Source: a virus. From it: DNA of 31,192 nucleotides. The stretch lies in the UHGV virus genome UHGV-0019120. The stretch is one strand, 5' to 3'. How positions within the stretch are numbered: position 1 is the first letter of the stretch; each line of letters opens with the position of its first letter. Below are positions 5,812-29,667 of this stretch, piece by piece. The translations under genes and the position numbers were made by a program. The notes beneath the pieces were generated by a model that had not been told where the DNA came from, searched no databases, and worked only from the letters and a program-made list of their open reading frames with translations.

Positions 5812-6468
5812 ATGAAAAGCAACGACGAGAACATCAAGAAAGAAATAGGTCTGCGCATTCAGACTCTACGGAAACAATCCGGCATGACTGCCGGAGATCT
5901 CCAGCAAGTCACTGGAATAGGCTTAAGCACCTTGCAGAACTATGAGGCCGGATTAAGACAACCATCTATACCTGCCATCAAGAAAATCGCGCACGCCCTG
6001 AAAGCATCAGCGCCTTATATCGCGTGCTTAACAGATAACCCGTTCCCACCCCAGAATACTAACGCTCCTGTTATTCCTGGGCTTGTAGCTATAAAAAATG
6101 ACATAGCATCGCACGCCGGAGAAAAGCCAGTGCTGGCGATAGAACAGGAGATTCTACGAAGCAAGAACATCAACCCATCGTCTCTGTCAGTTCTCCAGAG
6201 CAACGATGAGTTAATGTCACCAACAATATCCCCAGGCTCCCAAGTCCTGATTAATACAGACGATACAGAGATTCATGAGGGGATCTATGCCCTTGAAGAC
6301 AGAAATGGCCTGGTTGTTTTGAGGCACTGTAGAGTCATACCGGGTGACAATGCTGTTATGCTGTCAACCGAAAGGGATGCTGAAATGAACACTAAGCATC
6401 TGAATAACGAGGAATTTAAGCGTTATAAAGTTCTTGGCCGCGTAGTTAGTGTTGTCAACTGGTTATGA
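5812..6468 (+). CDS. CI/LexA-type prophage repressor (HTH_XRE plus S24-like C-terminal domain)
   Basis: 218 aa; N-terminal HTH (LRKQSGMTAGDLQQVTGIGLSTLQNYEAG), C-terminal LMSPTISPGSQVLIN and FKRYK...GRVVSVVNWL resembling the LexA/CI Ser-Lys autocleavage domain. Confidence 0.75.
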   Translation: MKSNDENIKKEIGLRIQTLRKQSGMTAGDLQQVTGIGLSTLQNYEAGLRQPSIPAIKKIAHALKASAPYIACLTDNPFPPQNTNAPVIPGLVAIKNDIASHAGEKPVLAIEQEILRSKNINPSSLSVLQSNDELMSPTISPGSQVLINTDDTEIHEGIYALEDRNGLVVLRHCRVIPGDNAVMLSTERDAEMNTKHLNNEEFKRYKVLGRVVSVVNWL

Positions 6469-7062: not shown

Positions 7063-7085
7063 CCAAACACATGGAGTCTCGACAA

Positions 7086-7739
7086 ATGACTATCTCTGTA
7101 GGTATTTTCAACGGAAAAGGCGGCGTAACCAAATCAACAATTGCCCGTGCTTTAGCAGTTGCTTATGCAAAGGCTGGCTGGAATGTATGCCTGATCGATA
7201 TGGATGTGCTTAACGGAACGGTAACGCGTTGGGTACAACGCAGAATGGCCAACAATATCGAACCAGCAATCGCGGCGCAGCCGTGCGGCACACCATCACA
7301 AGTCCAGAAAATCATCGAATCAGAAGTATACGACCTGGTTATCGTCGATGGCGGTGCCTACGCATCTGAATCAGTACCGAAGCTATCTGAATTTCTGGAT
7401 ATGGTTATTTTGCCAACCCGATTCTCTACCGATGACCTGGAAACCACCGTTAACACTGCTCACGGCATCGTTAAAAAGGGTGTACCAATCAAGAAAATTT
7501 GCATGGTGTTTTCCGGCGCGGCTGAAAACGAAGCTGACTATATTGAAGCCCAAGAGTACCTGGCTAATACGCCATACTTTGTTGTCGATAAGTACATTCC
7601 CCACAAGCCAGCTCTGAGCAAAGCTCAGGATAAGGGCTTAAGCCTCATTGAGTGCTCATACGTTGCGCCACGCAAAAAGGCAGACGACGTTATTCAGGGG
7701 ATTATCAACCAGCTTGAGGCTCTGACTACTGCCGCATAA
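7086..7739 (+). CDS. parA: ParA/ParF-type partition ATPase
   Basis: Deviant Walker A FNGKGGVTKST, A-prime motif VCLIDMD, B-like DLVIVDGGA; start placed at ATG 7086 (GGAG RBS) rather than track start 7071. Confidence 0.8.
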   Translation: MTISVGIFNGKGGVTKSTIARALAVAYAKAGWNVCLIDMDVLNGTVTRWVQRRMANNIEPAIAAQPCGTPSQVQKIIESEVYDLVIVDGGAYASESVPKLSEFLDMVILPTRFSTDDLETTVNTAHGIVKKGVPIKKICMVFSGAAENEADYIEAQEYLANTPYFVVDKYIPHKPALSKAQDKGLSLIECSYVAPRKKADDVIQGIINQLEALTTAA

Positions 7740-9352: not shown

Positions 9353-10494
9353 AAACGCTTCCGACCGTTAACACCCTACAGCCTATCCTGCATAACCAAA
9401 TCCCTGTCATTACTACCGAGTTACTAGCACAGCTTTACGGCACTGAGCCGGTGCGTATTCGCCAGAATCATCATGAGAACAAAGCACGTTTCGTTGAAGG
9501 GAAACACTTTTTCAAAGTTGTTGGTAATGACCTTAAAGAATTGCGGGTAGCTTTAAACTACTCTCAAAATCCAGTTTCACCTAAAGTCCGCTCCCTCATC
9601 CTCTGGACAGAACGCGGGGCTGCACGTCACGCTAAAATGCTCGAAACCGATCAGGCGTGGGATGTATTCGAACGGCTGGAAGACTGCTACTTCAACCAGA
9701 ACGCGCAAACGGCCGCGACCGTAACCGTCTCACCAAACAATGCTCGTGAGGTTGTCGATACGCTCAACGCTAAACCAATGTATTACGTTAAGGTGTGCAA
9801 CAACGAGCCACTCACAACCTCAGCCGATGTTGCCCAGGCATTCAGCACCACAAACAATTCCATCGTTATGGCCATCGATGCGTTACGCATTCCTCGCACA
9901 GCTGCGGCGCGTCACTTCTTTAAAGAACAACGACCGCTGGAAGGAAGCGACCGCGAAATAACAATCTATCGCATGACAAAAGACGGATTTACCTTGCTCA
10001 TGGAAAGTATCGACGGTCCAGGCGTGAAGGATATCAAGCTGGCCTACATTGAAGCCTTTAACGCTATCAGCAGCATGTTAAAGGCAGAATACGAGCGAAT
10101 GCTATACAACCGACTGTATCAGGAAACAAAGATTATCCGAACGGCAACAGAACATCATCGGCTATTAACGGAACCAAACTACCGCAAGACACTAATCAAA
10201 GAGTTTGACAAGGCGACGGAGAAAACTAAAGCGGCACTAAATCTACCAACAATGACTAAAGATGATGTGATATCAGCCTTACTTCTTGATCTGCTCAGAA
10301 ACGTCAGAGCACTTATCAGTTTTGACGAAAACCTGAATCCTCAGCTCAAGCTACTACCACCGACAGGCAAAGTAGTCGACCAGGCTGATCACAACAGCAT
10401 ACTCAGCGTTCTGGATGCAAACCTGCCAGCCAGGACACTACAGGATCTGATAAAAACATGTGCTGATAAGCTGGCACAGAAAAGCAGACCATAA
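9349..10494 (+). CDS. phage antirepressor / regulatory protein (ORF6N-like plus Rha-like domains)
   Basis: 381 aa; N-terminal ITTELLAQLYG...EGKHFF...ILWTERGAARHAKMLETDQAWDVFERLEDCYF resembles ORF6N; central TTSADVAQAF...YRMTKDGFTLLM...IEAFN resembles Rha. Confidence 0.7.
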   Translation: MKTLPTVNTLQPILHNQIPVITTELLAQLYGTEPVRIRQNHHENKARFVEGKHFFKVVGNDLKELRVALNYSQNPVSPKVRSLILWTERGAARHAKMLETDQAWDVFERLEDCYFNQNAQTAATVTVSPNNAREVVDTLNAKPMYYVKVCNNEPLTTSADVAQAFSTTNNSIVMAIDALRIPRTAAARHFFKEQRPLEGSDREITIYRMTKDGFTLLMESIDGPGVKDIKLAYIEAFNAISSMLKAEYERMLYNRLYQETKIIRTATEHHRLLTEPNYRKTLIKEFDKATEKTKAALNLPTMTKDDVISALLLDLLRNVRALISFDENLNPQLKLLPPTGKVVDQADHNSILSVLDANLPARTLQDLIKTCADKLAQKSRP

Positions 10495-10693: not shown

Positions 10694-11230
10694 AATTCCA
10701 CCATAACCGATAGCCACCCTTCAGACACAACCCCCCCTCCCCCCATACAGGGTGTCCTTTACCGGAGTTCCGGCCCCTTCTCAAAAGCATCAAAAAAAGC
10801 TCGAGATCGAGTACCGGAACTCATGCCACCAGATAGCTCCACATCGTTTCCAATGCTTCGCCGCCGTGTGCGCCCTGTGGCCCACAATCATGCCATTGGT
10901 CGTCTGATATACCTTCTTCTGCTCATTGAGCACAGGCGAGTTGTCGCACTCCTGCCTTTCTCAGACTCGACTTAGTTTAGATCGCTGTTCCTGGCTTGCG
11001 TCAGCACACTTTCCCCTTGTACGCATACCCGCGCGCCACTCCGCCCAAAAACACCGAACCCAACGAAGTGGCAAAGACAACGACGCGAGCGTGAGTCTGA
11101 AACAGGCACCAGTAAAAAAGGGGTTGCAGGCGCAAAAAGATTTGATTATCTTTAGACGCAAGAAAGCCGCCCCAATCAAGAGGTGTCTTTTTAAATCCAG
11201 CCTACCAAGCAAGATTTAAATTTCAGACTG

Positions 11231-12549: not shown

Positions 12550-12849
12550 TTAGACATGGAACGCTACTCGCTTTCCTGTAGGAAGCTCAACATCCAGGCT
12601 TAATTTGCCTCCCATAGCTTCAACGTAACGCTTTAATGTCGCCAGCTTTAAATCATTTCCGCGCTGCTCCAGCTTTGTTACTGCTGGCTGGCTTATACCC
12701 ATCGCCTCAGCAACCTGTTTTTGTGATAACTGGAGTTCTTCACGCATCATCTGCAAGCCGACCTCAAGAATCATCTCATCTGCCATTTCTTTAATTCGCG
12801 CCTGGCTTTCAGGTGAACGGCAGGCAATCACCTCATCTAATGTTCTCAT
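12550..12849 (-). CDS. HigA-like XRE-family antitoxin
   Basis: 99 aa; HTH LSQKQVAEAMGISQPAVTKLE; start overlaps toxin stop (ATGA at 12846-12849), downstream of the toxin as in HigBA-type modules. Confidence 0.7.
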   Translation of the reverse strand: MRTLDEVIACRSPESQARIKEMADEMILEVGLQMMREELQLSQKQVAEAMGISQPAVTKLEQRGNDLKLATLKRYVEAMGGKLSLDVELPTGKRVAFHV

Positions 12850-13196
12850 TACTTGCTCTCCAGTGTGTTCAGATGTGCTGCAAACTCATCCTCAGCTATA
12901 CGCACCAGTTTTTTATAAAACCGCTTATCGTTACTTTTGTCTCCTGCACAAAGAACGATGGCCCGACGAATCGGATCGAACGCATAAAAGGCTCTTATCG
13001 GACGGCCAGAAAACTGAACGCGAAGCTCTTTCATATTTTTGTACCGAGAACCTTTTACGGTATCGGCATATGGCCTGGGTAACTCAGGTCCGTAAACCTG
13101 TAGATTTTTCAAATCAGCCAAAACCTTTTCCTGAAGAGCCTCTTCTTGCTCATTTAGCCAGTCGTCAAATCGCTGGCTAAAAAGTACCGTCCACAT
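12849..13196 (-). CDS. HigB/RelE-superfamily toxin (Gp49-like)
   Basis: About 116 aa from ATG 13196 (AGGA RBS); the ...YAFDPIRRAIVLCAGDKSNDKRF... C-terminus resembles phage Gp49/HigB-type toxins; track ORF 12849..13316 is longer. Confidence 0.6.
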   Translation of the reverse strand: MWTVLFSQRFDDWLNEQEEALQEKVLADLKNLQVYGPELPRPYADTVKGSRYKNMKELRVQFSGRPIRAFYAFDPIRRAIVLCAGDKSNDKRFYKKLVRIAEDEFAAHLNTLESK

Positions 13197-13440
13197 GCTC
13201 AATCCTATAACCTGTAGTTTATACCACTGACTATATAACCCGTAGGTTATAATTTCAAGAAAAACGGGGCTATTTAACATAATGGACGTTATCGGCACCA
13301 CCGGATCACCGTTCATTGTCGGATCTAAAAAATCCGCTCAAAAGATCATGTTTTCCTGGGCGTTTTCCACCGTTTTTTATGTTGCTTATTTGTTAATGAA
13401 ATCTCGTTTTCAGTTTCGCCTCATTTTCGACGCGAAAGCC

Positions 13441-14658: not shown

Positions 14659-15639
14659 TTAATGTTGGAGTGATTTCCAGGTCTTTCTTAACCTGTTATA
14701 ACGCTGCTCAACGAGGGATCGTAAATATGCAAGGTCAGCTCCAGGATACATGCCATCAGCAAATTCCTGGCTAACCTCTCTAGTGATTTGATGACGAAGT
14801 TCGGCCTCTCCCTTTTCCCGAACAAGACGCGCAGCTCTCTCCGCTGCTTTCTGTTTTGCCTTTATCTCTCTGGCCGTCTTCCTCTGACGCCATACATTCT
14901 CCATCTGCTCCTGAATAACAATACGCTTATAATCAGCCTCCGTTATCGCTTTTTTAAGCCGTTCGCTATTCCTCGCATTGAAGTAATTAAGTTTCTGGCT
15001 AACCGCACGTCTCCATGCTTGTTCAGTAATACCAACGGTTTCCAGCAGTTGATCACGAATCTCTATTTTCGCAGGCCAATACTGTTTATTCACCCGATCC
15101 CAGCGACGTTCATAATCAATAAAACCTAACGCTTTCAGTTGCGACAACGCCCTTGTACAGCGCGTTATAGACTTGTTCCCAGCTTCGGATACGGTAGACA
15201 GGCCGCAAAAATCAGACAACGCCTCAGCACTGGCCAGAACCCGCTTAGAAATGATGTTTACATGGTACAACATCGCAGCAATCAGAGCATTAAACGCCCG
15301 ACGACGATGTTCGTTTATCCGGCGTTTCCGCTCTGACGGTTGATTAACGTAGAACGCAACCTCACACGTAAGATCACGACCATTAATGCGCTGTAAAGCA
15401 TCAGATAACACCAGCGGCAGCTTGTGCGTATGGCGCTTTGGAGGCTGGAACTCCGGCGACAAATTACAAACGTAAGCTGAACGTAGAGACGGCATTGGTC
15501 TATCCATATGTTCGCTCTTGCGTCCACGGAAAACCAACGTATAATGGGAGTTGTCGAGGCGCCCATGGATTGTTGTTGTTGGTTTTCCGTGGATGTCGCA
15601 AGAAGCCCGCAGATTTATCTGCGGGCTTTTTGTTTCCAT
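14659..15639 (-). CDS. repA: IncFII-type plasmid replication initiator RepA
   Basis: Central LSTVSEAGNKSITRCTRALSQLKALGFIDY closely parallels R100/R1 RepA1 as I recall it; Arg/Lys-rich coiled C-terminus also similar. Start uncertain: ATG 15639 or internal ATG 15507. Confidence 0.75.
   Translation of the reverse strand: METKSPQINLRASCDIHGKPTTTIHGRLDNSHYTLVFRGRKSEHMDRPMPSLRSAYVCNLSPEFQPPKRHTHKLPLVLSDALQRINGRDLTCEVAFYVNQPSERKRRINEHRRRAFNALIAAMLYHVNIISKRVLASAEALSDFCGLSTVSEAGNKSITRCTRALSQLKALGFIDYERRWDRVNKQYWPAKIEIRDQLLETVGITEQAWRRAVSQKLNYFNARNSERLKKAITEADYKRIVIQEQMENVWRQRKTAREIKAKQKAAERAARLVREKGEAELRHQITREVSQEFADGMYPGADLAYLRSLVEQRYNRLRKTWKSLQH
15520..15635 (+). ncRNA. candidate antisense copy-control RNA (CopA-like) opposite the repA 5' region
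   Basis: 15-17-bp perfect inverted repeat (15524-15538 / 15578-15592) then a strong plus-strand intrinsic terminator (15603-15632); no plus-strand coding potential. Promoter not identified. Confidence 0.35.
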
Positions 15640-16105: not shown

Positions 16106-16669
16106 ATGCTGAATAATAAAGATATGAATATTAATGAACTTAAAGACTGTATTCACTATGAAGTAATCGGTAGCGAGCGTCCTTTCTCCTGGCGAAAGGC
16201 AATTGTTCGCGCAATAAAACATAGAAGGGTTCGTTATTTATTTTGGTGGCGCATAGCCAAATACCTTTTTGATAAAGGCGGATACTGTCGGAAGATTGCG
16301 GGAAAAATAGAACGTTTCATTCTTGATAAATATAATGTAACAGTCCCTTTAACTGTAAATATAGGGAAAGGCTTTGATATTTCTTATCTCAACAGTGTTG
16401 TTATCGGTCACAAAGTAACAATCGGTGAAAATTGTTCAATTAAGCCCGGAGTAACTATTGGACTTCGCGGGGAATTTAATGATATGGATATTGTTATAGG
16501 GCATAATGTGACCATTGGTTGTAATGCCACCATTCTTGGTGGCAAAGTGCGTATAGGAAACAATGTCACAATAGGTGCTCATGCATTGGTATTGCATGAT
16601 ATTCCTGATGATTCAACATTCATCACTAAATTTCAGTCTGAAGTTATCTGCTCGTCCTCCCGAACATAA
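16106..16669 (+). CDS. hexapeptide-repeat (left-handed beta-helix) acyl/acetyltransferase
   Basis: 187 aa; repeated [LIV]-G-x-x-x-x-I-G hexapeptides; only plus-strand gene next to the tail module; 3' end overlaps the convergent fibre assembly gene. Confidence 0.6.
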
Positions 16670-17250
16670 CCCTGATTCATCAGCTCTGGCCATACGATAT
16701 CCGGAGCTGTACTGGTGTCAATTCTACTCACTAATACTCTGTATTTTCTCCAGGAATCCAGTTGTGAATTTTCCTCGTTTGTTGCTATTTCAAGATTAAC
16801 TGCATCCTGCAGAATTGCGATGTTATCTGTTGCTTCCTGGATCAACCTTGCCTTTTTCTCTTCCGCTTCCCGTATCCGAAACAGTTTTTCTGCTTCCTCA
16901 TCCGTCACCCAGGATACGCCGTCCCACTTCTGATACTCCCCTGCTGGCGACAACCAGGTGACATTCTCTGGTAGCGGTCCGAGTTCAGAAATAAACAATG
17001 CGTCCCCCGACGCCACGTCATAGACCGTTTTACCACGATGGTCTTCAACAATATTCCACGATTCATTTTCACTGTTAAAAACTGCCACAAAGCCAGCAGG
17101 AATTTCCGGTGGGGCGATATCTGTAGAATTAGCTGGCAGCCCTGTATGAGGTGGAATATATGCGTCACCTTCACCAATAAACTCATTAGTTCCGGCCAGC
17201 AGGTTATAAATTTTTACGGTACGTGATTGTTCACTCATTCTGAATGCCAT
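16633..17250 (-). CDS. tail fibre assembly protein (gpG/Tfa-like)
   Basis: 205 aa immediately downstream of the tail fibre; sequence style typical of Tfa chaperones. Confidence 0.8.
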
Positions 17251-20096
17251 TATGCAAGCCTCACAATATAATTAAATGCGATGTTTTTAACGGTGTTTTC
17301 CGCGTTACCAGCAGCGTTAACGGTGATGGTGTGTCCATGTGAACCAATCGCAACAGAGTGCGTATGAGCGCCAATACCAACAGTGTGTGCATGTGCCCCA
17401 GCACTTGTAGCGGTACCTGATACTGAGTGGGTATGTGCGCCAGAAGAAGGCACAGTTCCATTCCCCACCACCGTGCCACTTGATGAACCATCCAGCCAGT
17501 CGAAATTCATACCGCCACTGTTTGGTCTCCTTAATGGAACGGTATGAGTATGTGCGCCAGCACTATTTGCAGTACCAGATACATTATGGGTATGTGCACC
17601 TGTGTTATTCGTTGATTTAGTACCGTAATCAAACGACGATGTGGTTTTCGTACCCAAATCCGTATTGGATGCGCTGGCACTGTGGGTGTGCGATTTAATG
17701 CCATCCTGTTCCTGAGACAATACGGCCCGACCACTGGCGGGTTTGCCCTTGATTGTCCAGCCGCGCATATCTGGAATAACACCAGAAGGATAGGCAATAG
17801 CCAGTTTCGGATATGCTGCCTTATCAAACGTCTGCCCCTGCATGATTGCATAACCTGCAGGTGGCGTATCTGATGGCCACGGCAGCGGAACACCTGGCGG
17901 AAACGCTTCAATATTTGCCGAGCCGTCAAATTTTACGCCGTTAATTGTCCTTGCCGTTTTCAGCTTTGTTGCTGTAGCAGCATTGCCGGATAGTTCGCCT
18001 GAAAGACCACCGCTGAATGTCTGTTTCGCCATCCATGTCTGAGCTTCGTCGATAATTGGCACACGTCTTGTCGTGATCGTGCGGCTTCCCGGATTTCCTG
18101 AAATGCGAACCATAAAAAAGCGGTAGTTGGCTTTACTTACAGTGCTGCGCCATACATGCATTGAGCGTCCCGAACCAGAATCATCACTCGGACCGACTGA
18201 GATGTTTATCAGGTTGCCATCAATGACGCCCCAGTCCATACCGTCGGGAATATTGGTCATGTTATCAAGCCGAACGGTTATCAGACTGCCCGGCACAAAA
18301 TCGTAGGTCTGCCAGTCCAGGCTGGTGAGCTTTGCCACAGCACCGCCGATACCCAGATTCAGGGGAAGTGAATACGAGGTGTAGACTTCCCGCCATTCGC
18401 TCCATGAGCTGCCGGTAAAGACGCGCTCAAAGGTGCGGCCTTTAAGGGTTGTACCTGTTCCGGCAGTTGTATAACGCTGCCATACATTAACACCATCAAA
18501 CCGCCTCAACACTTCCAGAATACCGAGGACTGTCACGCCGTTTCCGTCCAGTACTGGACCGTTGGTCGCTTTACCTGTAACGCTGTAAATACCTGGTGAA
18601 GTCACATCATTCAAATCCCCGTCGTAATAACGACTCTCTGACTGATGACCGACTCTTAACCACGGTTCCCACTGCGGATTTGATGCATCCCAGCTTGCCG
18701 CAAGGCAGCGGACGTACATATTTCCACGGCGAGTGGTATAACGTTGCGTTCTTCCATAATTCCCGCCTTCGAGGATCTCAAGCGTCCCCTGAGCAAAGCC
18801 GCCTTCCTCTGGATAATTGCGTTCATATGAAGCTATAGCCGAGCTACTGTTACGCCATAAACCAAGATGCTCGGCGGCTCCAAGCGTATTCAGGTCTATA
18901 GTCGTACTCAAAGAGCGGGTAGCTGATTGAGTGTGACGCCATATGCCCCACGGACCATCAGAGCCATTCCACTTATTGGCGAGTCTGCGTATGTATACAT
19001 TGCCGTCTCTCGTGGTGAAGCGTTGCGTACCTGCAAAATTGCCGGCAGCAAAAACCTCAAGCACACCGACAGCATTATCTTCCGGGAAATTTTTCTCCAG
19101 TGTTGCGTTAGTTGAGGTAGCTTTAGACCAGATCCCCAGATAAGCCTTAACGGGACCAAATGTATTCAGATCAGCATCAAGCGGCATTTCGCCATTGTTT
19201 TTCATAAACGTCAGGCTGGTAACGCCAACATTGTCCAGAAAAGCTGATTTATCCTGGATATCTGCACCGTTCTGATTTTTCGCCAGACGTGAATTTGCGT
19301 TGTCATTTGCTGCCTTGACCGCTTTTGGCGTTGCCGCCTGCGTTTCAGACGTACTGTTAGTGGCACTACTGAGCTGAACTATCCCTTTTTGTGCCGTGGT
19401 GGCATTCTGGGCGGTATATTTTCCGTCAGCCAGGTCATATGCAGCCTTAACAGCCTTAGGCGTCGCTGCGAGCTTTTCAGACGTGCTATTGGTGGCATTA
19501 CTGAGTTGAACAATGCCTTTTGATGTTAAAGTTGCATCAGGATGATTACGTGATTGCTCATGTTTTACAATAGCTTGCTTAAGCCGCTTTGCTGAAACAG
19601 CCAGGGAATCATCTGTACCTGCATCAATTTCTTGTTCATTAGCAAATCTTGCTACTCCAACAACAGTTTCGGTTGCGGGAGGGTTAATAAACTCAACATC
19701 ACCAAATGTAATGTTTTTAGTATCAAGATTTTTAATTGCTATATCACTTGATATTAAAGCAATTGTAGAAGATGCTTTATTTATTATTACTTGTTCTTGC
19801 GAGTATACAGCAAACAATGTTCCTTTATTTGTATACAAACCTATTGTATGGACAACATACTCATCTTTACTATCATCCTTCGCAGTTACATGAATGGTAT
19901 CAGGAGAAACGACTTTGCCTCCTATTGTGGTAAGTCGCTTTATTTCATCTGTTATTTTTGTTTGTGTGGTTGATGTGGCATAATATCTACTACCTAAACC
20001 AACAGAAACGATCTCAACTTTATTTGTTCCAGTCTTGTTGGCATTAACCAGCGCCTTACGCCCGGCGTCAGTCATCGTAAATAATAATTTACTCAC
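17250..20096 (-). CDS. tail fibre protein (P2 gpH-like, His-box C-terminal domain)
   Basis: 948 aa; [16 protein letters not shown] and duplicated QLSxATNSTSE..[10 protein letters not shown] repeats match P2 gpH as I recall; C-terminal GAHTH repeats typical of receptor-binding tips. Confidence 0.85.
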
Positions 20097-23225: not shown

Positions 23226-24227
23226 TTAATACCCATTAATTACTCTTCGGACATCAATCGAGGTGGTATAACCACTAGTCCCAATTGAATGCACAGCTTT
23301 CGATATAAGATATTTTCCAGAAAATGAACCGAATCCCTCCAGATTTATAGTTACACCAGCTACCAATCTGGTGTCTCCAACCAATACTAAAGATCCGGTA
23401 TTTTGATATCTATTTTTAAGCCGCAAAGCAGCCTTTGCCTTACGTTTTGCTTCATCTAAATTAGCTACCAGTTTTCTTATCTTAAGATTCGACCCTTCTT
23501 CTACGGATGGATCTACCCAAGTATACGAAAGCGACTTTCTTTTTTTAGGTACGCGATATTTGCACGTGCAACTTTTATACAAATCTGTAGATTGTGTGCT
23601 AAAGCTATATCTGATTATCTCATCAATACCTAACGTAAGCGTAGCGATAGGATCTTTTTGCTCAAACATCTCTTGAGCAAATATTATTAATTGGCTATCA
23701 GTGACCTTTAACGACAACCCTTCATCCTGGCAAAGTCGATGGAGAAATTTTAAATCGCTTTCCTCCATTTGATCTTCACGCGCATAATATGGATTACTAT
23801 CACCATCAATAAGAAACAACAGTTCAAGGTTAGCTAATTTAGCTATAGAAGTTGCTATATCTTTAAGAGTTGTTTTTTCCCATGCATTACTTTTTAAATC
23901 ACGTCTAATGCCTGATGAAATAGGAACAGAAACAGCAGTTACCTCAACCACAGAAGGTGGTCCAGAGCAAGTTATGCCATCTACCTGGAATTTCCCGCAC
24001 TCAAGGACGATTTGATTTATAGGCTTAAAGCTCAAATCAATAAAATCACCCTTTTTAGGTGTCCAGTCTCCAGACCATTTCCCATCATCATTTTTTAATA
24101 TAATAGAAATATCATCGACCTGACCATCTTCATTATCTGTATAAGACATTGACAAAACATCAGGTGACATATGAGCGGTAATATTTACATTCTGATATAT
24201 AACATCAAAAAGCGTTTTACGTAACAC
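23226..24227 (-). CDS. putative gpD-like baseplate hub protein
   Basis: 333 aa after the X-like gene; assigned by position and size. Confidence 0.55.
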   Translation of the reverse strand: MLRKTLFDVIYQNVNITAHMSPDVLSMSYTDNEDGQVDDISIILKNDDGKWSGDWTPKKGDFIDLSFKPINQIVLECGKFQVDGITCSGPPSVVEVTAVSVPISSGIRRDLKSNAWEKTTLKDIATSIAKLANLELLFLIDGDSNPYYAREDQMEESDLKFLHRLCQDEGLSLKVTDSQLIIFAQEMFEQKDPIATLTLGIDEIIRYSFSTQSTDLYKSCTCKYRVPKKRKSLSYTWVDPSVEEGSNLKIRKLVANLDEAKRKAKAALRLKNRYQNTGSLVLVGDTRLVAGVTINLEGFGSFSGKYLISKAVHSIGTSGYTTSIDVRRVINGY

Positions 24228-24435
24228 TATTGCGTCTCCACGGAGGAAAATTGTTTACTGATATTGGCATAACCGGAGCATCAGGAACTTTAAGAATAAT
24301 TCCCGCAGAAAAAAGCACCGTAAAGCGGTGCTCAGTATTAGCATCAATAAGAAGATAAGACAGGTACTCATTACCATACAACTTTAAAGCGATACTATCC
24401 CATGAGTCCCCTTGAACCGTTCTATAATCATCCAA
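24217..24435 (-). CDS. tail protein X-like (LysM domain)
   Basis: 72 aa; YRTVQGDSWDSIALKLYGNEYLSYLLIDAN is a LysM-like motif. Confidence 0.65.
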   Translation of the reverse strand: MDDYRTVQGDSWDSIALKLYGNEYLSYLLIDANTEHRFTVLFSAGIILKVPDAPVMPISVNNFPPWRRNSVT

Positions 24436-27220
24436 AACTTAATCTCCGTTGTTGGAACATATGAGCACTCAATTTCTTCTCAAAATCAGAATATCCCGCA
24501 TCTAATGCTCTTTTAGCTGCCGCCTCAGTTTCCTTTGGTGAACCAGCCGGAAGATTGATTACAGGTGAATAGGTTATTCCACCAGTCACAGCGTTAACGT
24601 TCTGGCGAGGTCCAGAAGTCCCAGCGGCAGATATCCCGTGAGGTGATAAATTTGATTGCCCGAACTTGCTTGCTATTGCATTCTGTAAGCTGTTATTCCT
24701 GCTAACACCTGATGCCAGAGTAGTCATTATTGCACCACCTGACTTTGTTAGCTGTGAGAATGGACCTTTTTTCGCGTCAGAGAACGGTAAATACTCACGT
24801 ACAGAAGAAAAAACGCCTTTCACTTCATTAATTAAAGCATTTGCTTTTGATTTTATCCCAGTGATTAACGTCTCAATTATTTTTGCGCCTGACTCACTCC
24901 AGTTTATTCCAGATAAATAAGTCGTTACAGATTGGAATGCTCTTATAAAGAGTCCAACTGGTGAAAAACGCATAAAAACAGATACCAGTGTATCTATGAT
25001 TTTCTTTCCTGTTTCGCTCCAGTTAATGCCAGAAAGGTAATTTGTTGTAATTTTAAATGCTTTAATTAAGAACGGAAGCGGAGACATCCATTTAAAAGCA
25101 CTAATTAATGTACTGTAAATTCTTACTCCTGCCGAACTCCAGTTTATGTTGGAAAGATAATCCCATGCTTTACCAAACATAGATATAATCCATCCATTGA
25201 GGTCAAAGTTTAAGATAAAGTTTTTTATAGCCTCAAATGATTTAACTGTATATTCCTTAACAGAAGGCCAAACTCTGACAGCATAATCTCTGATCTTATC
25301 CCAATTCTGATAGAGCAATATTCCTGCGGCAACCAGCGCAGATATAGCCATCTGAATCCACCCGAAGGGTGTTAGCTTTGTCGCTACAGATAAAGCCAGC
25401 ATAGCTACCCTACACGCTATAACCACACTTTTCATGGTTAGAAACGCACCTGCCGCCATCACTATCTGAGACACAAAATTGGGGTTGTTAGCTACAAATT
25501 CACTAATTTTTGTAATCAGCGGAACCAAAACACTAAGCGCGGCATTCAAAGCAGGTTGCAAGGCCTGACCAAAACTTAATGATGCATTGCTAGCCTGAAT
25601 ACGTAATTGTTTCAATCGCTCCGCATTATCTTTCGTTATGTTGGCAAAATCGCGGTCAATAACAGCACTTCCAGCTCCAAGAGATGTTGCTTTGATTCTC
25701 TGGTATTCCTTCCAGTTTTGAATCATCGGACGAACAAAGTTCTGAACCTGCATATCGCCAAATAGTTCACCAAGTAACTTCTGATCTCCGTTCTTAGTCA
25801 TTTTCATGACAGAATGCATTGCAGCTTCGAATGGATTCTTCCCTTTTTTCTGCGCTGTTGTAACAATTTTATATAAATCTACACCGAAATTTTTCTTTGC
25901 TTTTTTTAGTGTTTCAGGGGAAAGTATTTTTGCCAAAAAGTTGTTCATATTATTAGCAGCCTCATCCGAAGTTGCAGCCCCCTTGCGAGCTATCTGCAAA
26001 GCTGCACCCATCGTCGCGGCTGCTTCTTTACCTCCCATTTTTAATGCCTGGAACTGAGCACCAAGCACAGGAAGATTTTTGGCCATATCTTTAAATTCAA
26101 AGTTCCCCTCTTTCCCTGCCTGAACCAGAATCCCCATTGCAGACTTCATTTGAGATGGATCAATCTTCAATGAGTCACTTAATGTAAATGATGCTTTCGA
26201 GACATCGAGGATATCAGAGCCAGTAGCTGTAGCTGTTCGCCCAATAGTTAGTAGATTCGCCTGAGCCTCTTTATAATCCTGCCCAGCAGCGACGAGAAAA
26301 CCCTGAGCGGCCTGAATATCAGATGCAAACTGGTTGGTAGCCGTTCCGGTAACAAGCATCGCCTGCCCCATCGCCTGAACTTCTTCCGGCTTCATATCTG
26401 CCGTAAGACCAATCATTTTGTTTTCACGATTGAAATTTGCTGCATTGTTAGCAGCAGCAAATGCACCAGCCGCTACAGCACCAGTTTGTAATCCTGACCT
26501 TACAAGTTGACTCTTTGCCTCACCAAGATGCTCTCGCTTCAATTCACGCTGCCTTTCCAACGCGCGGTTTAACTCCTCCTGAGCACGTTTTACTGCAAGA
26601 ACATTTTTCCGTGCTTCAGCCAACGCATTTTTATAGCTGTTAATTTTATCAATACGTTGTTTTTCTAATGCCCGGTTAAGTTCCTCCTGCTGTTTTTTCA
26701 CTTGCTGAACATTTGCTCTGGCTAAAGCCAAAGCCGTTCTGTAGCGGTTAACCTGCTCAACGCTACGGGCCTGAGCCTCACGATTACGATCAATGCTGGC
26801 TTTAAGCTCTTTCTCTCTTGAGGCCAAAGCTCTGGCAGATGTATCAGCTCCCTGATAGGCAGACTTTAAAGCGGCCAGTTCTTCACGCTGAGAACGTAGT
26901 GATGCTCGTAAATTTGATGAATGTGTTTTTGCCTTCTCAAAGTCACGAAGCATCGCTCTGGTTGGATTGGCCGTGTTTTTTATTTGCTTCTGTAACTCTT
27001 CAACGCGAGCGGCAGCTTTATGATATTCGAGGGCAGTCTGTCCAACCTTTACTTTTACAGATTGTAGCTTTTGAATTTCCCCATGTTCTTTCGTTAATCC
27101 AGCAAGCTCTGCATTTAATTTAGCAACAGCCTGATTAGCTGTAGTAAAACTTTTGGGGAGAGAGGCGGCAACTTTGCCGCCAATTTCAAAAGCCAGCTTA
27201 AAGTTCTTATTGCTGGCCAT
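24428..27220 (-). CDS. tail tape measure protein
   Basis: 930 aa; long Ala/Lys/Glu/Arg-rich helical N-terminal half, hydrophobic segments, tandem SGINWSE-containing repeats; directly after the chaperone genes. Confidence 0.8.
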   Translation of the reverse strand: MASNKNFKLAFEIGGKVAASLPKSFTTANQAVAKLNAELAGLTKEHGEIQKLQSVKVKVGQTALEYHKAAARVEELQKQIKNTANPTRAMLRDFEKAKTHSSNLRASLRSQREELAALKSAYQGADTSARALASREKELKASIDRNREAQARSVEQVNRYRTALALARANVQQVKKQQEELNRALEKQRIDKINSYKNALAEARKNVLAVKRAQEELNRALERQRELKREHLGEAKSQLVRSGLQTGAVAAGAFAAANNAANFNRENKMIGLTADMKPEEVQAMGQAMLVTGTATNQFASDIQAAQGFLVAAGQDYKEAQANLLTIGRTATATGSDILDVSKASFTLSDSLKIDPSQMKSAMGILVQAGKEGNFEFKDMAKNLPVLGAQFQALKMGGKEAAATMGAALQIARKGAATSDEAANNMNNFLAKILSPETLKKAKKNFGVDLYKIVTTAQKKGKNPFEAAMHSVMKMTKNGDQKLLGELFGDMQVQNFVRPMIQNWKEYQRIKATSLGAGSAVIDRDFANITKDNAERLKQLRIQASNASLSFGQALQPALNAALSVLVPLITKISEFVANNPNFVSQIVMAAGAFLTMKSVVIACRVAMLALSVATKLTPFGWIQMAISALVAAGILLYQNWDKIRDYAVRVWPSVKEYTVKSFEAIKNFILNFDLNGWIISMFGKAWDYLSNINWSSAGVRIYSTLISAFKWMSPLPFLIKAFKITTNYLSGINWSETGKKIIDTLVSVFMRFSPVGLFIRAFQSVTTYLSGINWSESGAKIIETLITGIKSKANALINEVKGVFSSVREYLPFSDAKKGPFSQLTKSGGAIMTTLASGVSRNNSLQNAIASKFGQSNLSPHGISAAGTSGPRQNVNAVTGGITYSPVINLPAGSPKETEAAAKRALDAGYSDFEKKLSAHMFQQRRLSFG

Positions 27221-27225
27221 TAGTA

Positions 27226-27408
27226 TTAATCCTCATTAAACACGTCAATCCATGCGACGATTCGCCTCAACCGAAGCGAAAGCCAGTAGGATATAGGTGT
27301 TGATTGAGATGATTGAGATAGAGAACTCGCGGCCCTCATTATTTGCTTATCAATAGGTTTTTGCTCATCAAAACCTACGAGAGCAAAAAATTCTGTACCT
27401 TTTGACAA
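27226..27408 (-). CDS. tail chaperone frameshift extension (E-prime-like)
   Basis: No ATG; lies in the -1 frame relative to the chaperone gene, overlapping its 3' end across slippery heptamer TTTTTTG. Confidence 0.5.
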   Translation of the reverse strand: MSKGTEFFALVGFDEQKPIDKQIMRAASSLSQSSQSTPISYWLSLRLRRIVAWIDVFNED

Positions 27409-27656
27409 ACTTTAACAAAGTCTTTCGCTGGTAATCCATTCAGATACTCTATTGGACGACCAATACAGCGAGCAGCCAAGGCTGCATGGACTTTATTATC
27501 AAGTGATGTTTGAACTGAAACATGCCCTTGAGATTGCAGTAAGTCCGATACCTCTAAAATATCACTGCCTTTTAGGTTGTCTAAATCAAGGTTGAGTTCA
27601 GTCACCGGCTCAAAGTCTTCAAAACGATATTCTTTACTTAATTTAACGGTTTCCAT
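27375..27656 (-). CDS. tail assembly chaperone (P2 gpE-like)
   Basis: 93 aa, acidic, between tube and tape measure; ends ...QNFLLS with TTTTTTG embedded in the last codons. Confidence 0.6.
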   Translation of the reverse strand: METVKLSKEYRFEDFEPVTELNLDLDNLKGSDILEVSDLLQSQGHVSVQTSLDNKVHAALAARCIGRPIEYLNGLPAKDFVKVCQKVQNFLLS

Positions 27657-27665
27657 TTTGTCACC

Positions 27666-28187
27666 TTATAAACCTAAATCATCACGAACGCTTTTTAATA
27701 TATCTTCACCATCAAAGATACAAATAAAGTTCAACTTATCAATTTCCAGGACTTCTTTTCCATCAATAAATAATTTGATATAGAGAACTTCAAATTCATT
27801 CTCTGAATCAGTAGCCTTTGCCACCTGTAGCGAACCTAAATCCAGTTTTTTAGGGTTTAGCTTCATTGAAGCCCGAATAGGAACCGTTTTATATTTTCCT
27901 GTTCCTGCATCATAAACCTGCTGGCTACCGCGAAAATCTACCTGATGCGATGAGGATAGAAATAATTTTGTACCAGCAGAGGTCAGAGTTCGCCATTTAA
28001 GAGAGACAGTCATTGGTTTGAAATGCCCCAGCGTTCCGCTCTCAAGCTCTCCAGCGATACCTGCACCACTAACAGTTTCTGTCATCATCTCAATTGATGG
28101 CAGCTTTGCGTCAGCAACACCGATAATACGGTTTCCTTCACCGTATACTGTAAAGTTAATAAGTCTCTCAGGAATTTGATTGCTCAA
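27666..28187 (-). CDS. tail tube protein (P2 FII-like)
   Basis: 173 aa; INFTVYGEGNRIIGV...LPSIE and C-terminal FIDGKEVLEIDKLNFI parallel P2 FII. Confidence 0.7.
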   Translation of the reverse strand: MSNQIPERLINFTVYGEGNRIIGVADAKLPSIEMMTETVSGAGIAGELESGTLGHFKPMTVSLKWRTLTSAGTKLFLSSSHQVDFRGSQQVYDAGTGKYKTVPIRASMKLNPKKLDLGSLQVAKATDSENEFEVLYIKLFIDGKEVLEIDKLNFICIFDGEDILKSVRDDLGL

Positions 28188-28203
28188 AGCAACCTCCTAT
28201 TAT

Positions 28204-29667
28204 TTATTCAGAAAACAAGTTCAGCAGATAATCAGGATTATATTCCATGACGAACTCTATATCTCTGGCAGGTGAGAATGGTGTCATTTTCACATGGAAT
28301 TTAACAATCCCGTCCATCAATGACGTAATCGTGTTTTCAGACTGATCAAAGGTAACAACACCACCTGCAATATCCTGATTACCAGTGAGGCCGTTAAGCC
28401 AAATATTCGCACTAGTAACAATCGATTCAATTAATCGACGGTTTGCAGGATTGTCTATTTTTGACCAATGCGAAAGAATTAACGTATTACCCACCCAGTT
28501 AAACATACGTCGGCAAACACGAAATGCGTCTTTGGGGTCTGTAGATGTTGGATAAATAGCATTACGGTTTCCCCATGATTTCCAACCATCAAAATTAAGG
28601 CTTGTTACAATCCCCTGTCCATTTAAGTAGTTTGCCTGGCTAATGTTAAGCCATACCTCACTGCCATCTTTACGTACAGCACCGTCCATCTGTAGTTTTA
28701 TATTTGACGGAGAACGTGATGGAATATCACCATACTGACTATCCAGCAAGCATGTTGCTGCCGCTAAATGGGTTGAGTGATGGTAAATATTGTCACCAAG
28801 TTTCACCATCGGCCAGCACACTGTCTGGTTAGCTGCCATATGATTATTGTTCTGCTTCCATTCAGGAACAGCAGAATAATCACTGATAGTAGATTTATCA
28901 GTCGGCGCATCGGTGATAGCTTCTGCTTTGAACAATTCACTAATCAGCGCAGCTTTAGCCGCCATTAGCTGGCCAACTTCACTATCAGAACTAAATCCAG
29001 GCGCAATCACTTGTCCTGGAACTAGTTTGAAGCGGGGATAAACATCCGACAGTAACTCAAGCCCCGTATTCGCTTTAGTGTTGGAATCCACACCACCAAT
29101 AATATCGTTTTTAGTTACAGCCCCGGGATCAAGATGCGTATAACTAACCTTAAGAGTGGCGTCTTTTTCAGTAATTTTTCCTCCGCTAATAGCGGTAATG
29201 ACCGTATAGCCATTATCATCCAGCGCCAGTACATAATCTGTATCAACCGTTAACCCTGGAGAATCACCATCTGCTTTTTTCACAACAACAGATTTATATA
29301 AGACACCATCGTTAGAGAGCGTACCTTTCCCGCCAGAAAGTTTTACTACCTCATCAGTTACGTCTTTCTTATGCTTTGCTGGATCAAGCACATTGATAAA
29401 TACAACTGGCGCAACACCATATATTCCAAATGCGACTTTAATTACTTCGCTTAAAGTATATTTCTCGAAGTTTGTGCTATATCCTATTTTAGATACGGCC
29501 TCTGCGTATGTATAAGCAATGATAGGTTTATTTACCGCTGAGGCTGGATCTTCTAACTGATTAACAGGAGCTGTACCAAATGCGACAATCAACCCAGCAC
29601 TAACTTGTACTGGAGGAGTTATAGATGTAGCCAGCTCAGATATATAAATACCGTGGCGATATCCCAT
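28204..29667 (-). CDS. contractile tail sheath protein (P2 FI-like)
   Basis: 487 aa; C-terminal WGNR...KFHVKM...Y block resembles sheath proteins. Confidence 0.8.
   Translation of the reverse strand: MGYRHGIYISELATSITPPVQVSAGLIVAFGTAPVNQLEDPASAVNKPIIAYTYAEAVSKIGYSTNFEKYTLSEVIKVAFGIYGVAPVVFINVLDPAKHKKDVTDEVVKLSGGKGTLSNDGVLYKSVVVKKADGDSPGLTVDTDYVLALDDNGYTVITAISGGKITEKDATLKVSYTHLDPGAVTKNDIIGGVDSNTKANTGLELLSDVYPRFKLVPGQVIAPGFSSDSEVGQLMAAKAALISELFKAEAITDAPTDKSTISDYSAVPEWKQNNNHMAANQTVCWPMVKLGDNIYHHSTHLAAATCLLDSQYGDIPSRSPSNIKLQMDGAVRKDGSEVWLNISQANYLNGQGIVTSLNFDGWKSWGNRNAIYPTSTDPKDAFRVCRRMFNWVGNTLILSHWSKIDNPANRRLIESIVTSANIWLNGLTGNQDIAGGVVTFDQSENTITSLMDGIVKFHVKMTPFSPARDIEFVMEYNPDYLLNLFSE

Follow-up and report, generated by a model that had tools for sequence, protein, structure and literature searches.

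A probable programmed −1 ribosomal frameshift at the end of the tail assembly chaperone gene in an Escherichia coli phage-plasmid

The window, that is, the whole stretch of 31,192 nucleotides of DNA that was analysed, carries on its minus strand a contractile-tail operon in the order sheath, tube, chaperone, tape measure, gpX and gpD. Two codons before the stop of the chaperone gene lies the heptamer U UUU UUG, and behind it the −1 frame stays open until just before the tape measure gene. The genes and features of this region are as follows.

28204..29667, minus strand: tail sheath gene, 487 aa (phrog_23, E 7.6e-96)
27666..28187, minus strand: tail tube gene, directly upstream of the chaperone gene (PF04985 Phage_tube, E 3.5e-44)
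27375..27656, minus strand: tail assembly chaperone gene, the analogue of lambda G and P2 E, 93 codons plus UAG (ORF list, PF10109, phrog_3140)
27384..27390, minus strand: U UUU UUG, the putative slippery heptamer; it is in zero-frame register, and two codons separate it from the UAG
27226..27384, minus strand: −1 frame extension, the analogue of lambda T and P2 E', 52 codons plus TAA at 27228..27226 (open −1 frame)
24428..27220, minus strand: tape measure protein gene, 930 codons (PF10145, E 1e-20; phrog_28, E 9.4e-109)
24217..24435, minus strand: gpX-like gene, 72 aa (PF05489, phrog_46)
23226..24227, minus strand: gpD-like gene (PF05954, phrog_52)

Judged from its gene content and sequence matches, the element from which the window comes is a myovirus-type phage-plasmid of about 48 kb from E. 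coli, because the chaperone region always lies on plasmids and because the window encodes RepA, ParA and a CI-like repressor. Of 5426 complete E. coli genomes, 71 carry the region; in each it resides on a plasmid (~46-50 kb) rather than on the chromosome, and several E. coli plasmids match it at 100% identity. Yersinia phage vB_YpM_39 matches it at 99.5% identity, and Escherichia phages vB_EcoM-613R2 and 473R2 do so at 98.4%. An initial guess that the element belongs to the pSLy3 phage-plasmid group was dropped, since that group is part of the SSU5 supergroup. The genes of the window that bear on its plasmid or phage lifestyle, together with a toxin gene, are the following.

14659..15639, minus strand: IncFII-type RepA
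7071..7739, plus strand: ParA
5812..6468, plus strand: CI-like HTH repressor
12849..13316, minus strand: Gp49/HigB-like toxin

The chaperone gene opens with ATG, and its product of 93 aa ends in ...KVQNFLLS*. This protein matches phrog_3140, 'tail assembly chaperone', with an E-value of 8.7e-43, and over residues 3-91 it matches the Pfam family PF10109 (Phage_TAC_7, 'Phage tail assembly chaperone proteins, E, or 41 or 14', which comprises P2 gpE, Mu gp41 and similar proteins) with 25.4 bits, a borderline pass of the gathering threshold of 25 bits. Its relatives score 29-36 bits against the same family, and homologues carry precomputed PF10109 matches. The AF2 model of the chaperone (pLDDT 76.5) shows a beta-hairpin followed by four helices, and a Foldseek search of BFVD with this model returned a 147-aa protein at 44% identity as well as annotated tail assembly or tape measure chaperones, while a Foldseek search of the PDB gave no match below E 1 and a sequence-profile search of the PDB gave chance matches only. 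Neither the conceptual fusion of chaperone and extension nor P2 E+E' has a match in NCBIfam.

Read on the minus strand, the 3' end of the chaperone gene is GUA CAG AAU UUU UUG CUC UCG UAG. Direct reading places the heptamer at 27384-27390 in the register X XXY YYZ, as the sequence-only reading had claimed: the first U, at 27390, closes the codon AAU, and the zero-frame codons UUU (27389-27387) and UUG (27386-27384) follow. The run consists of exactly six Ts (T6), with A before it and G behind it. The motif as such is not enriched, with 12 copies of TTTTTTG on both strands of the window against 13.9 +/- 3.7 expected from shuffles, and the frequency of the heptamer was dropped as an argument because it is at chance level. 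The case therefore rests on context, namely gene order, homology and conservation. An open −1 frame of at least 52 codons occurs at only 2.6% of the 9371 codon positions in 50 genes of the window, and among 47 in-register X XXY YYZ heptamers the one at 27384..27390 alone lies at the 3' end of a gene and is followed by a long −1 ORF. Of the window's other in-register heptamers, just one has a long open −1 frame, TTTAAAA at 11189 (62 codons); it lies within a short minus-strand ORF at 10961..11212, which is overlapped by a plus-strand ORF at 10926..11219 and is probably not a real gene.

The −1 ORF of the program-made list runs from 27408 to 27226 and would encode 60 aa from a TTG start; where it overlaps the heptamer its codons are TTT (27390-88), TTT (27387-85) and GCT (27384-82). 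The extension proper begins with GCU at 27384, so that G27384 would be read twice, and its TAA lies 5 nt before the ATG of the tape measure gene (27220); the −1 ORF thereby fills a gap of 154 nt between the chaperone and tape measure genes that is otherwise unassigned. The sequence-only reading had described this ORF as a −1 frame without an ATG. Its frame and coordinates are correct and no ATG occurs at or near its start, but there is an internal in-frame ATG at 27339..27337 (Met24). The extension matches phrog_30074 with an E-value of 2e-37. A conceptual fusion of the two frames is 143 aa long, with residues 1-91 shared with the chaperone and then ALVGFDEQ...VFNED; its junction reads ...KVQNFL-ALVGFDEQ..., and the predicted junction peptide is VQNFLALVGFDEQK. 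This fusion aligns with phrog_3140 over residues 1-137, continuously across the junction, and scores 162.4 bits compared with 147.7 for the chaperone alone. Therefore, phrog_3140 already contains joined products.

The extension is coding, as seen from the bias of its substitutions towards third codon positions and from its conserved peptide motif. Compared with the related locus L016 (69% identical), the extension of the window shows 37 substitutions, of which 9, 6 and 22 hit the first, second and third positions of the −1 frame codons; the corresponding figures for the chaperone proper are 24, 11 and 40. Only ungapped −1 frame counts were used, and the distribution in the extension departs from evenness with a chi-square of 11.7 (2 df, p ~0.003, calculated by hand).

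Conservation was assessed in 44 IMG/VR loci collected with a profile of the chaperone and in three phage records, and five contigs with 72-77% identical proteins, including ones from Hafnia, Salmonella, Enterobacter and Symbiopectobacterium, were added; a profile search of genome contigs with the chaperone alignment gave no confirmed locus. Among the 47 loci, which represent ~20 distinct lineages and range from 100% down to 32% identity, no intact homologue lacks T TTT TTN in the zero-frame register; the motif precedes the chaperone stop by 6-45 nt, and N is mostly G but T, C or A in some lineages. Each intact homologue also has a −1 extension of 52-68 codons, and in most loci with a located tape measure start the extension ends within +/-14 nt of that start (overall range -25 to +50 nt). 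From the junction onwards the extension peptides can be aligned with one another, showing G-L/F at 3-5 residues and then TPIxYWLSxPLxEL..W. Since the sequence-only reading had made its claim depend on conservation of the downstream ORF in related elements, it is of note that the heptamer and the extension are both retained in all intact relatives, the most distant included. Exceptions are confined to damaged loci. L036 and L038 (2480..3000) have many frame breaks at homopolymers that look like assembly errors, and in L036 the chaperone and the extension appear joined in one frame. L015 (2767..2830) retains the heptamer, but its extension breaks off after 16 codons, with no tape measure gene behind it, as in a degraded copy.

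One may argue that no recoding takes place at all, and that the gap is non-coding with a −1 frame open by chance, or that the layout reflects an assembly error or a pseudogene at a homopolymer. The chance frequency of the motif, the empty gap in the RefSeq and GenBank records of the closest relatives, and the error-laden homopolymers in IMG/VR copies such as L036 and L038 would all fit. However, the same T6 and two-frame layout is present in the 71 independently assembled complete E. coli plasmids, in isolated phages and in the relatives down to the lowest identity, the extension has the third-position bias and peptide motif described above, and so long an open −1 frame is rare among the window's genes. 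We therefore find this explanation hardly credible.

Alternatively, the −1 ORF might be a small gene of its own, translated from TTG at 27408 or ATG at 27339 into a protein of 60 or 37 aa. Gene callers have called such ORFs in relatives, KLER1-1 has its own annotated ORF of 41 aa in the gap, phrog_30074 (62 positions) matches the whole listed ORF, and the in-frame ATG at 27339 offers a start. Against this, neither a start nor a Met is conserved in the extension among relatives, the Met being absent in X29 and KLER1-1; no Shine-Dalgarno sequence is seen by eye before TTG 27408 or ATG 27339; and the conserved peptide starts at the junction, upstream of the ATG. In addition, six lineages have a stop in the −1 frame 0-1 codon before the heptamer, thus the extension can be entered only at the heptamer in those lineages, and the continuous alignment of the fusion with phrog_3140 also speaks for one joined product. 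An independent gene is thus very improbable.

The best-known counterpart of this arrangement is in phage P2, and the sequence-only reading had named its E/E' site as having the same slippery sequence. This parallel holds: gene E in NC_001895 reads GGT TTT TTG in register, and the record places an annotated 'site of -1 translational frameshift' immediately behind the final G of the heptamer. The passage on this pair in PMC3091744, which cites Christie 2002 and Xu 2004, gives lengths of 91 aa for P2 E and 142 aa for E+E', made from TTTTTTG. Not only the heptamer and its register but also the product sizes (93 and 143 aa here) are alike, and in both proteins the PF10109 match stops at the Leu that UUG, the last codon of the heptamer, specifies (residues 3-91 in the window, 7-85 in P2). 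Each pair belongs to a contractile-tail operon, where it is placed between the tube and tape measure genes, and each has an extension that ends at the tape measure start; in NC_001895 the E+E' CDS ends inside the start of gene T. P2 E' also fits the extension pattern TPIxYWLSxPLxEL..W.

Nevertheless, the two systems are far apart in sequence. A pairwise BLAST comparison of the fusion with P2 E gave no similarity (E 20); it is through profiles alone that the two are linked, and hhalign of the family against P2 E+E' gave a colinear but weak alignment (E 0.016, probability 2.9%). P2 E+E' scores 47.8 bits with PF10109 and 76.3 bits with PF06528 (P2 GpE), while PF06528 does not match the extension of the window even at E 10. 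As far as its sequence allows it to be classed, the extension is a segment that would work like P2 E' yet is no member of PF06528. Further differences are that the distance from the heptamer to the chaperone stop is 6 nt here and 18 nt in P2, that the operon goes on with gpX-gpD here and with U-D in P2, that the sheath is larger here (487 aa), and that the host element is a phage-plasmid.

The closest annotated case is that of Vibrio phage X29 / phi 2 (NC_024369), a true homologue whose chaperone is 45% identical and whose genes follow the same order. It has the same AAT TTT TTG, a UAG 6 nt downstream and an extension of 57 codons, and its RefSeq record annotates 'gpG' together with a CDS joined from two pieces on AAT TTT TTG, a 'lambda gpGT analog'. 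It differs in its Vibrio host, in an extension whose sequence is alike in the motif only, and in having no hairpin at the place of the possible hairpin of the window described below.

A third explanation keeps the fusion but moves the slip from the ribosome to RNA polymerase, which would occasionally add an extra U on the T6 run, so that a minority of mRNAs would have the chaperone and the extension in one frame and give the same product. The site is indeed a homopolymer at which one inserted base leads into the −1 frame, and some distant relatives (L041, L047, L051, L053) have T7. Appreciable slippage by bacterial RNA polymerase generally needs ~8-9 or more A/T, so the run of exactly six here and in most relatives is short for the polymerase. 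Moreover, the run always stands in the X XXY YYZ register, which is relevant to the ribosome only, although that register is also fixed by conserved xFL residues, and the homologous P2 site is annotated and cited as translational. Transcriptional slippage is accordingly improbable in our judgement.

G/GT-type pairs (Xu, Hendrix & Duda 2004) are recognised by the position of the ORF pair, the heptamer, the lack of a start of its own in the second ORF, and conservation. Each of these features is found here, and at the level of sequence the earlier claim of a canonical programmed −1 frameshift in the tail chaperone pair holds. We consider that the site very probably represents a programmed −1 ribosomal frameshift of the type of lambda G/GT and P2 E/E+E'. 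On this mechanism, most ribosomes would read the chaperone gene to the UAG and release the 93-aa protein. A minority would slip when the P site contains tRNA-Phe on UUU and the A site tRNA-Leu on UUG; the two tRNAs would shift back by one base and re-pair with UUU UUU, and the next codon would be GCU (27384..27382). Reading 52 further codons in the −1 frame would then yield the 143-aa fusion and end 5 nt before the tape measure start. By analogy with lambda, the shared N-terminal part may coat the tape measure protein, the rare C-terminal extension may bring in the tube protein and so let the tail tube grow to its correct length, and a fixed slip frequency may set the ratio of the two products. 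We infer the slippage itself, its frequency and the role in assembly.

The presumed role, a fixed G:GT ratio for tail assembly, is what the proposed system would share with lambda, and the lambda pair differs in its heptamer (G GGA AAG) and in belonging to a non-contractile tail; the analysis detected no resemblance to lambda G in sequence. For lambda and P2 the literature describes both a short and a frameshifted long protein, made in a fixed low ratio and both required to assemble the tail. In the summary that PMC5009743 gives of the work on lambda G/GT (Levin, Hendrix & Casjens 1993; Xu, Hendrix & Duda 2004, 2013, 2014), G and GT are made in a ratio of 30:1 and neither is present in mature virions, and P2 frameshifts two- to three-fold more than lambda. 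Reporter assays in E. coli show U_UU.G to be a weak A-site tetramer and do not place U_UU.U_UU.G in the top class for this host (PMC4066793), so either a low slip frequency or help from the context is to be expected.

Candidate stimulators were sought on both sides of the heptamer. An upstream Shine-Dalgarno-like (SD-like) element, AAGG, lies 7 nt upstream in the window; it was rejected, as its pairing energy of -4.0 kcal/mol is equalled or bettered by 34% of background windows. Such an element is significant only in P2, L037 and X29 (L002). In P2 (L054, 1665..1678) it is UAAGGUGGU, with -8.6 kcal/mol and a background fraction of 0.04; in L037 it is AGGUGG, 4-5 nt upstream of the heptamer (-12.2 kcal/mol, background fraction 0.009); and in X29 it is AGGCGG, likewise 4-5 nt upstream (-7.0 kcal/mol, background fraction 0.05). 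These sequences may be a lineage-specific stimulator or a by-product of conserved K/R-V codons.

Downstream of the heptamer there is one candidate structure.

27354..27377, minus strand: possible hairpin of 8 bp, formed by UAGGUUUU (27377..27370), an 8-nt loop and AAAACCUA (27361..27354)

It begins 6 nt after the heptamer, with the UAG stop within its 5' arm, and the 96-nt stretch has a minimum free energy of -21.8 kcal/mol (z -1.98). Across 8 enterobacterial relatives, which represent few lineages, 75% of the hairpin cells are paired compared with at most 58% when the hairpin is slid. Two pairs show compensatory changes (U-A to G-C and U-A to C-G), and the observed covariation score was reached by 1 of 500 shuffles; the invariant G-G/C-C pairs of the stem coincide with a Gly codon and a Pro codon. 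Distant relatives have no structure at this place, and the hairpins predicted across the family vary in position and stability (z -4.0 to +1.1). An Rfam scan of 27150..27700 at E 10 returned sub-threshold chance matches to eukaryotic miRNAs and snoRNAs only and no frameshift element, a promoter and terminator scan of 26900..28300 gave counts at chance level, and a tRNA scan gave nothing relevant.

The combination of an X XXY YYZ heptamer with a possible hairpin 6 nt downstream, at the canonical spacing, recalls the −1 frameshift signals of E. coli dnaX and the IS3 family, in which the heptamer is joined by an SD-like element upstream and/or a conserved structure 5-9 nt downstream, and from which the window differs in having no significant upstream SD element and in that its hairpin is short (8 bp), A-U rich and weakly supported. 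It also sets the window apart from the P2-like phages, for which no downstream hairpin is reported (PMC3091744). Sequence and covariation make it possible that a stimulatory hairpin is present here. The stronger proposal, that in this enterobacterial phage-plasmid lineage the 8-bp hairpin at 27377..27354 is a selected stimulator that raises slippage on U UUU UUG, is tentative and in our view rather unlikely; if it is true, the chaperone ratio would be tuned differently here from the P2-like phages with the same heptamer.

This type of frameshift is well known and widely conserved, and what is new is an unannotated case in an E. coli phage-plasmid lineage. The chaperone is annotated as 'hypothetical' in vB_YpM_39 and as 'phage tail assembly protein' in RefSeq NZ_CP032259, and both records leave the gap to the tape measure gene empty. 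On the reading as a programmed frameshift, the 154-nt 'gap' of the two records is coding sequence, and an essential tail-assembly product is probably missing from them; similar feature names suggest that the omission is general among the 71 plasmid-borne copies. The window adds one more lineage in which T TTT TTN stands at the end of a PF10109 chaperone, thus the heptamer is a reliable annotation rule for the family. The value of the case is mainly for annotation, and it raises no new biological question.

The same operon probably holds a second annotation gap, the gpX-like ORF, which shares bases with the 3' end of the tape measure gene and with the beginning of the gpD-like gene. Its match to PF05489 (21.1 bits) is slightly below the cut-off of 22, and it matches phrog_46 with an E-value of 4.8e-17; it is annotated in vB_YpM_39, while PGAP left 9556-9757 empty in NZ_CP032259. 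Elsewhere in the window, part of the minus-strand tail fibre gene at 17250..20096, from 17941 to 19377, is ~94% identical to the tail fibre gene of P2-type phages, although the DNA of the element is otherwise unrelated to that of P2; from this pattern of identity the segment looks like a mosaic host-range module. A tail-fibre assembly gene at 16633..17250 (minus strand) is adjoined by a gene for a hexapeptide-repeat acyltransferase at 16106..16669 (plus strand), and in relatives a hin-type invertase is present somewhere within the matched region.
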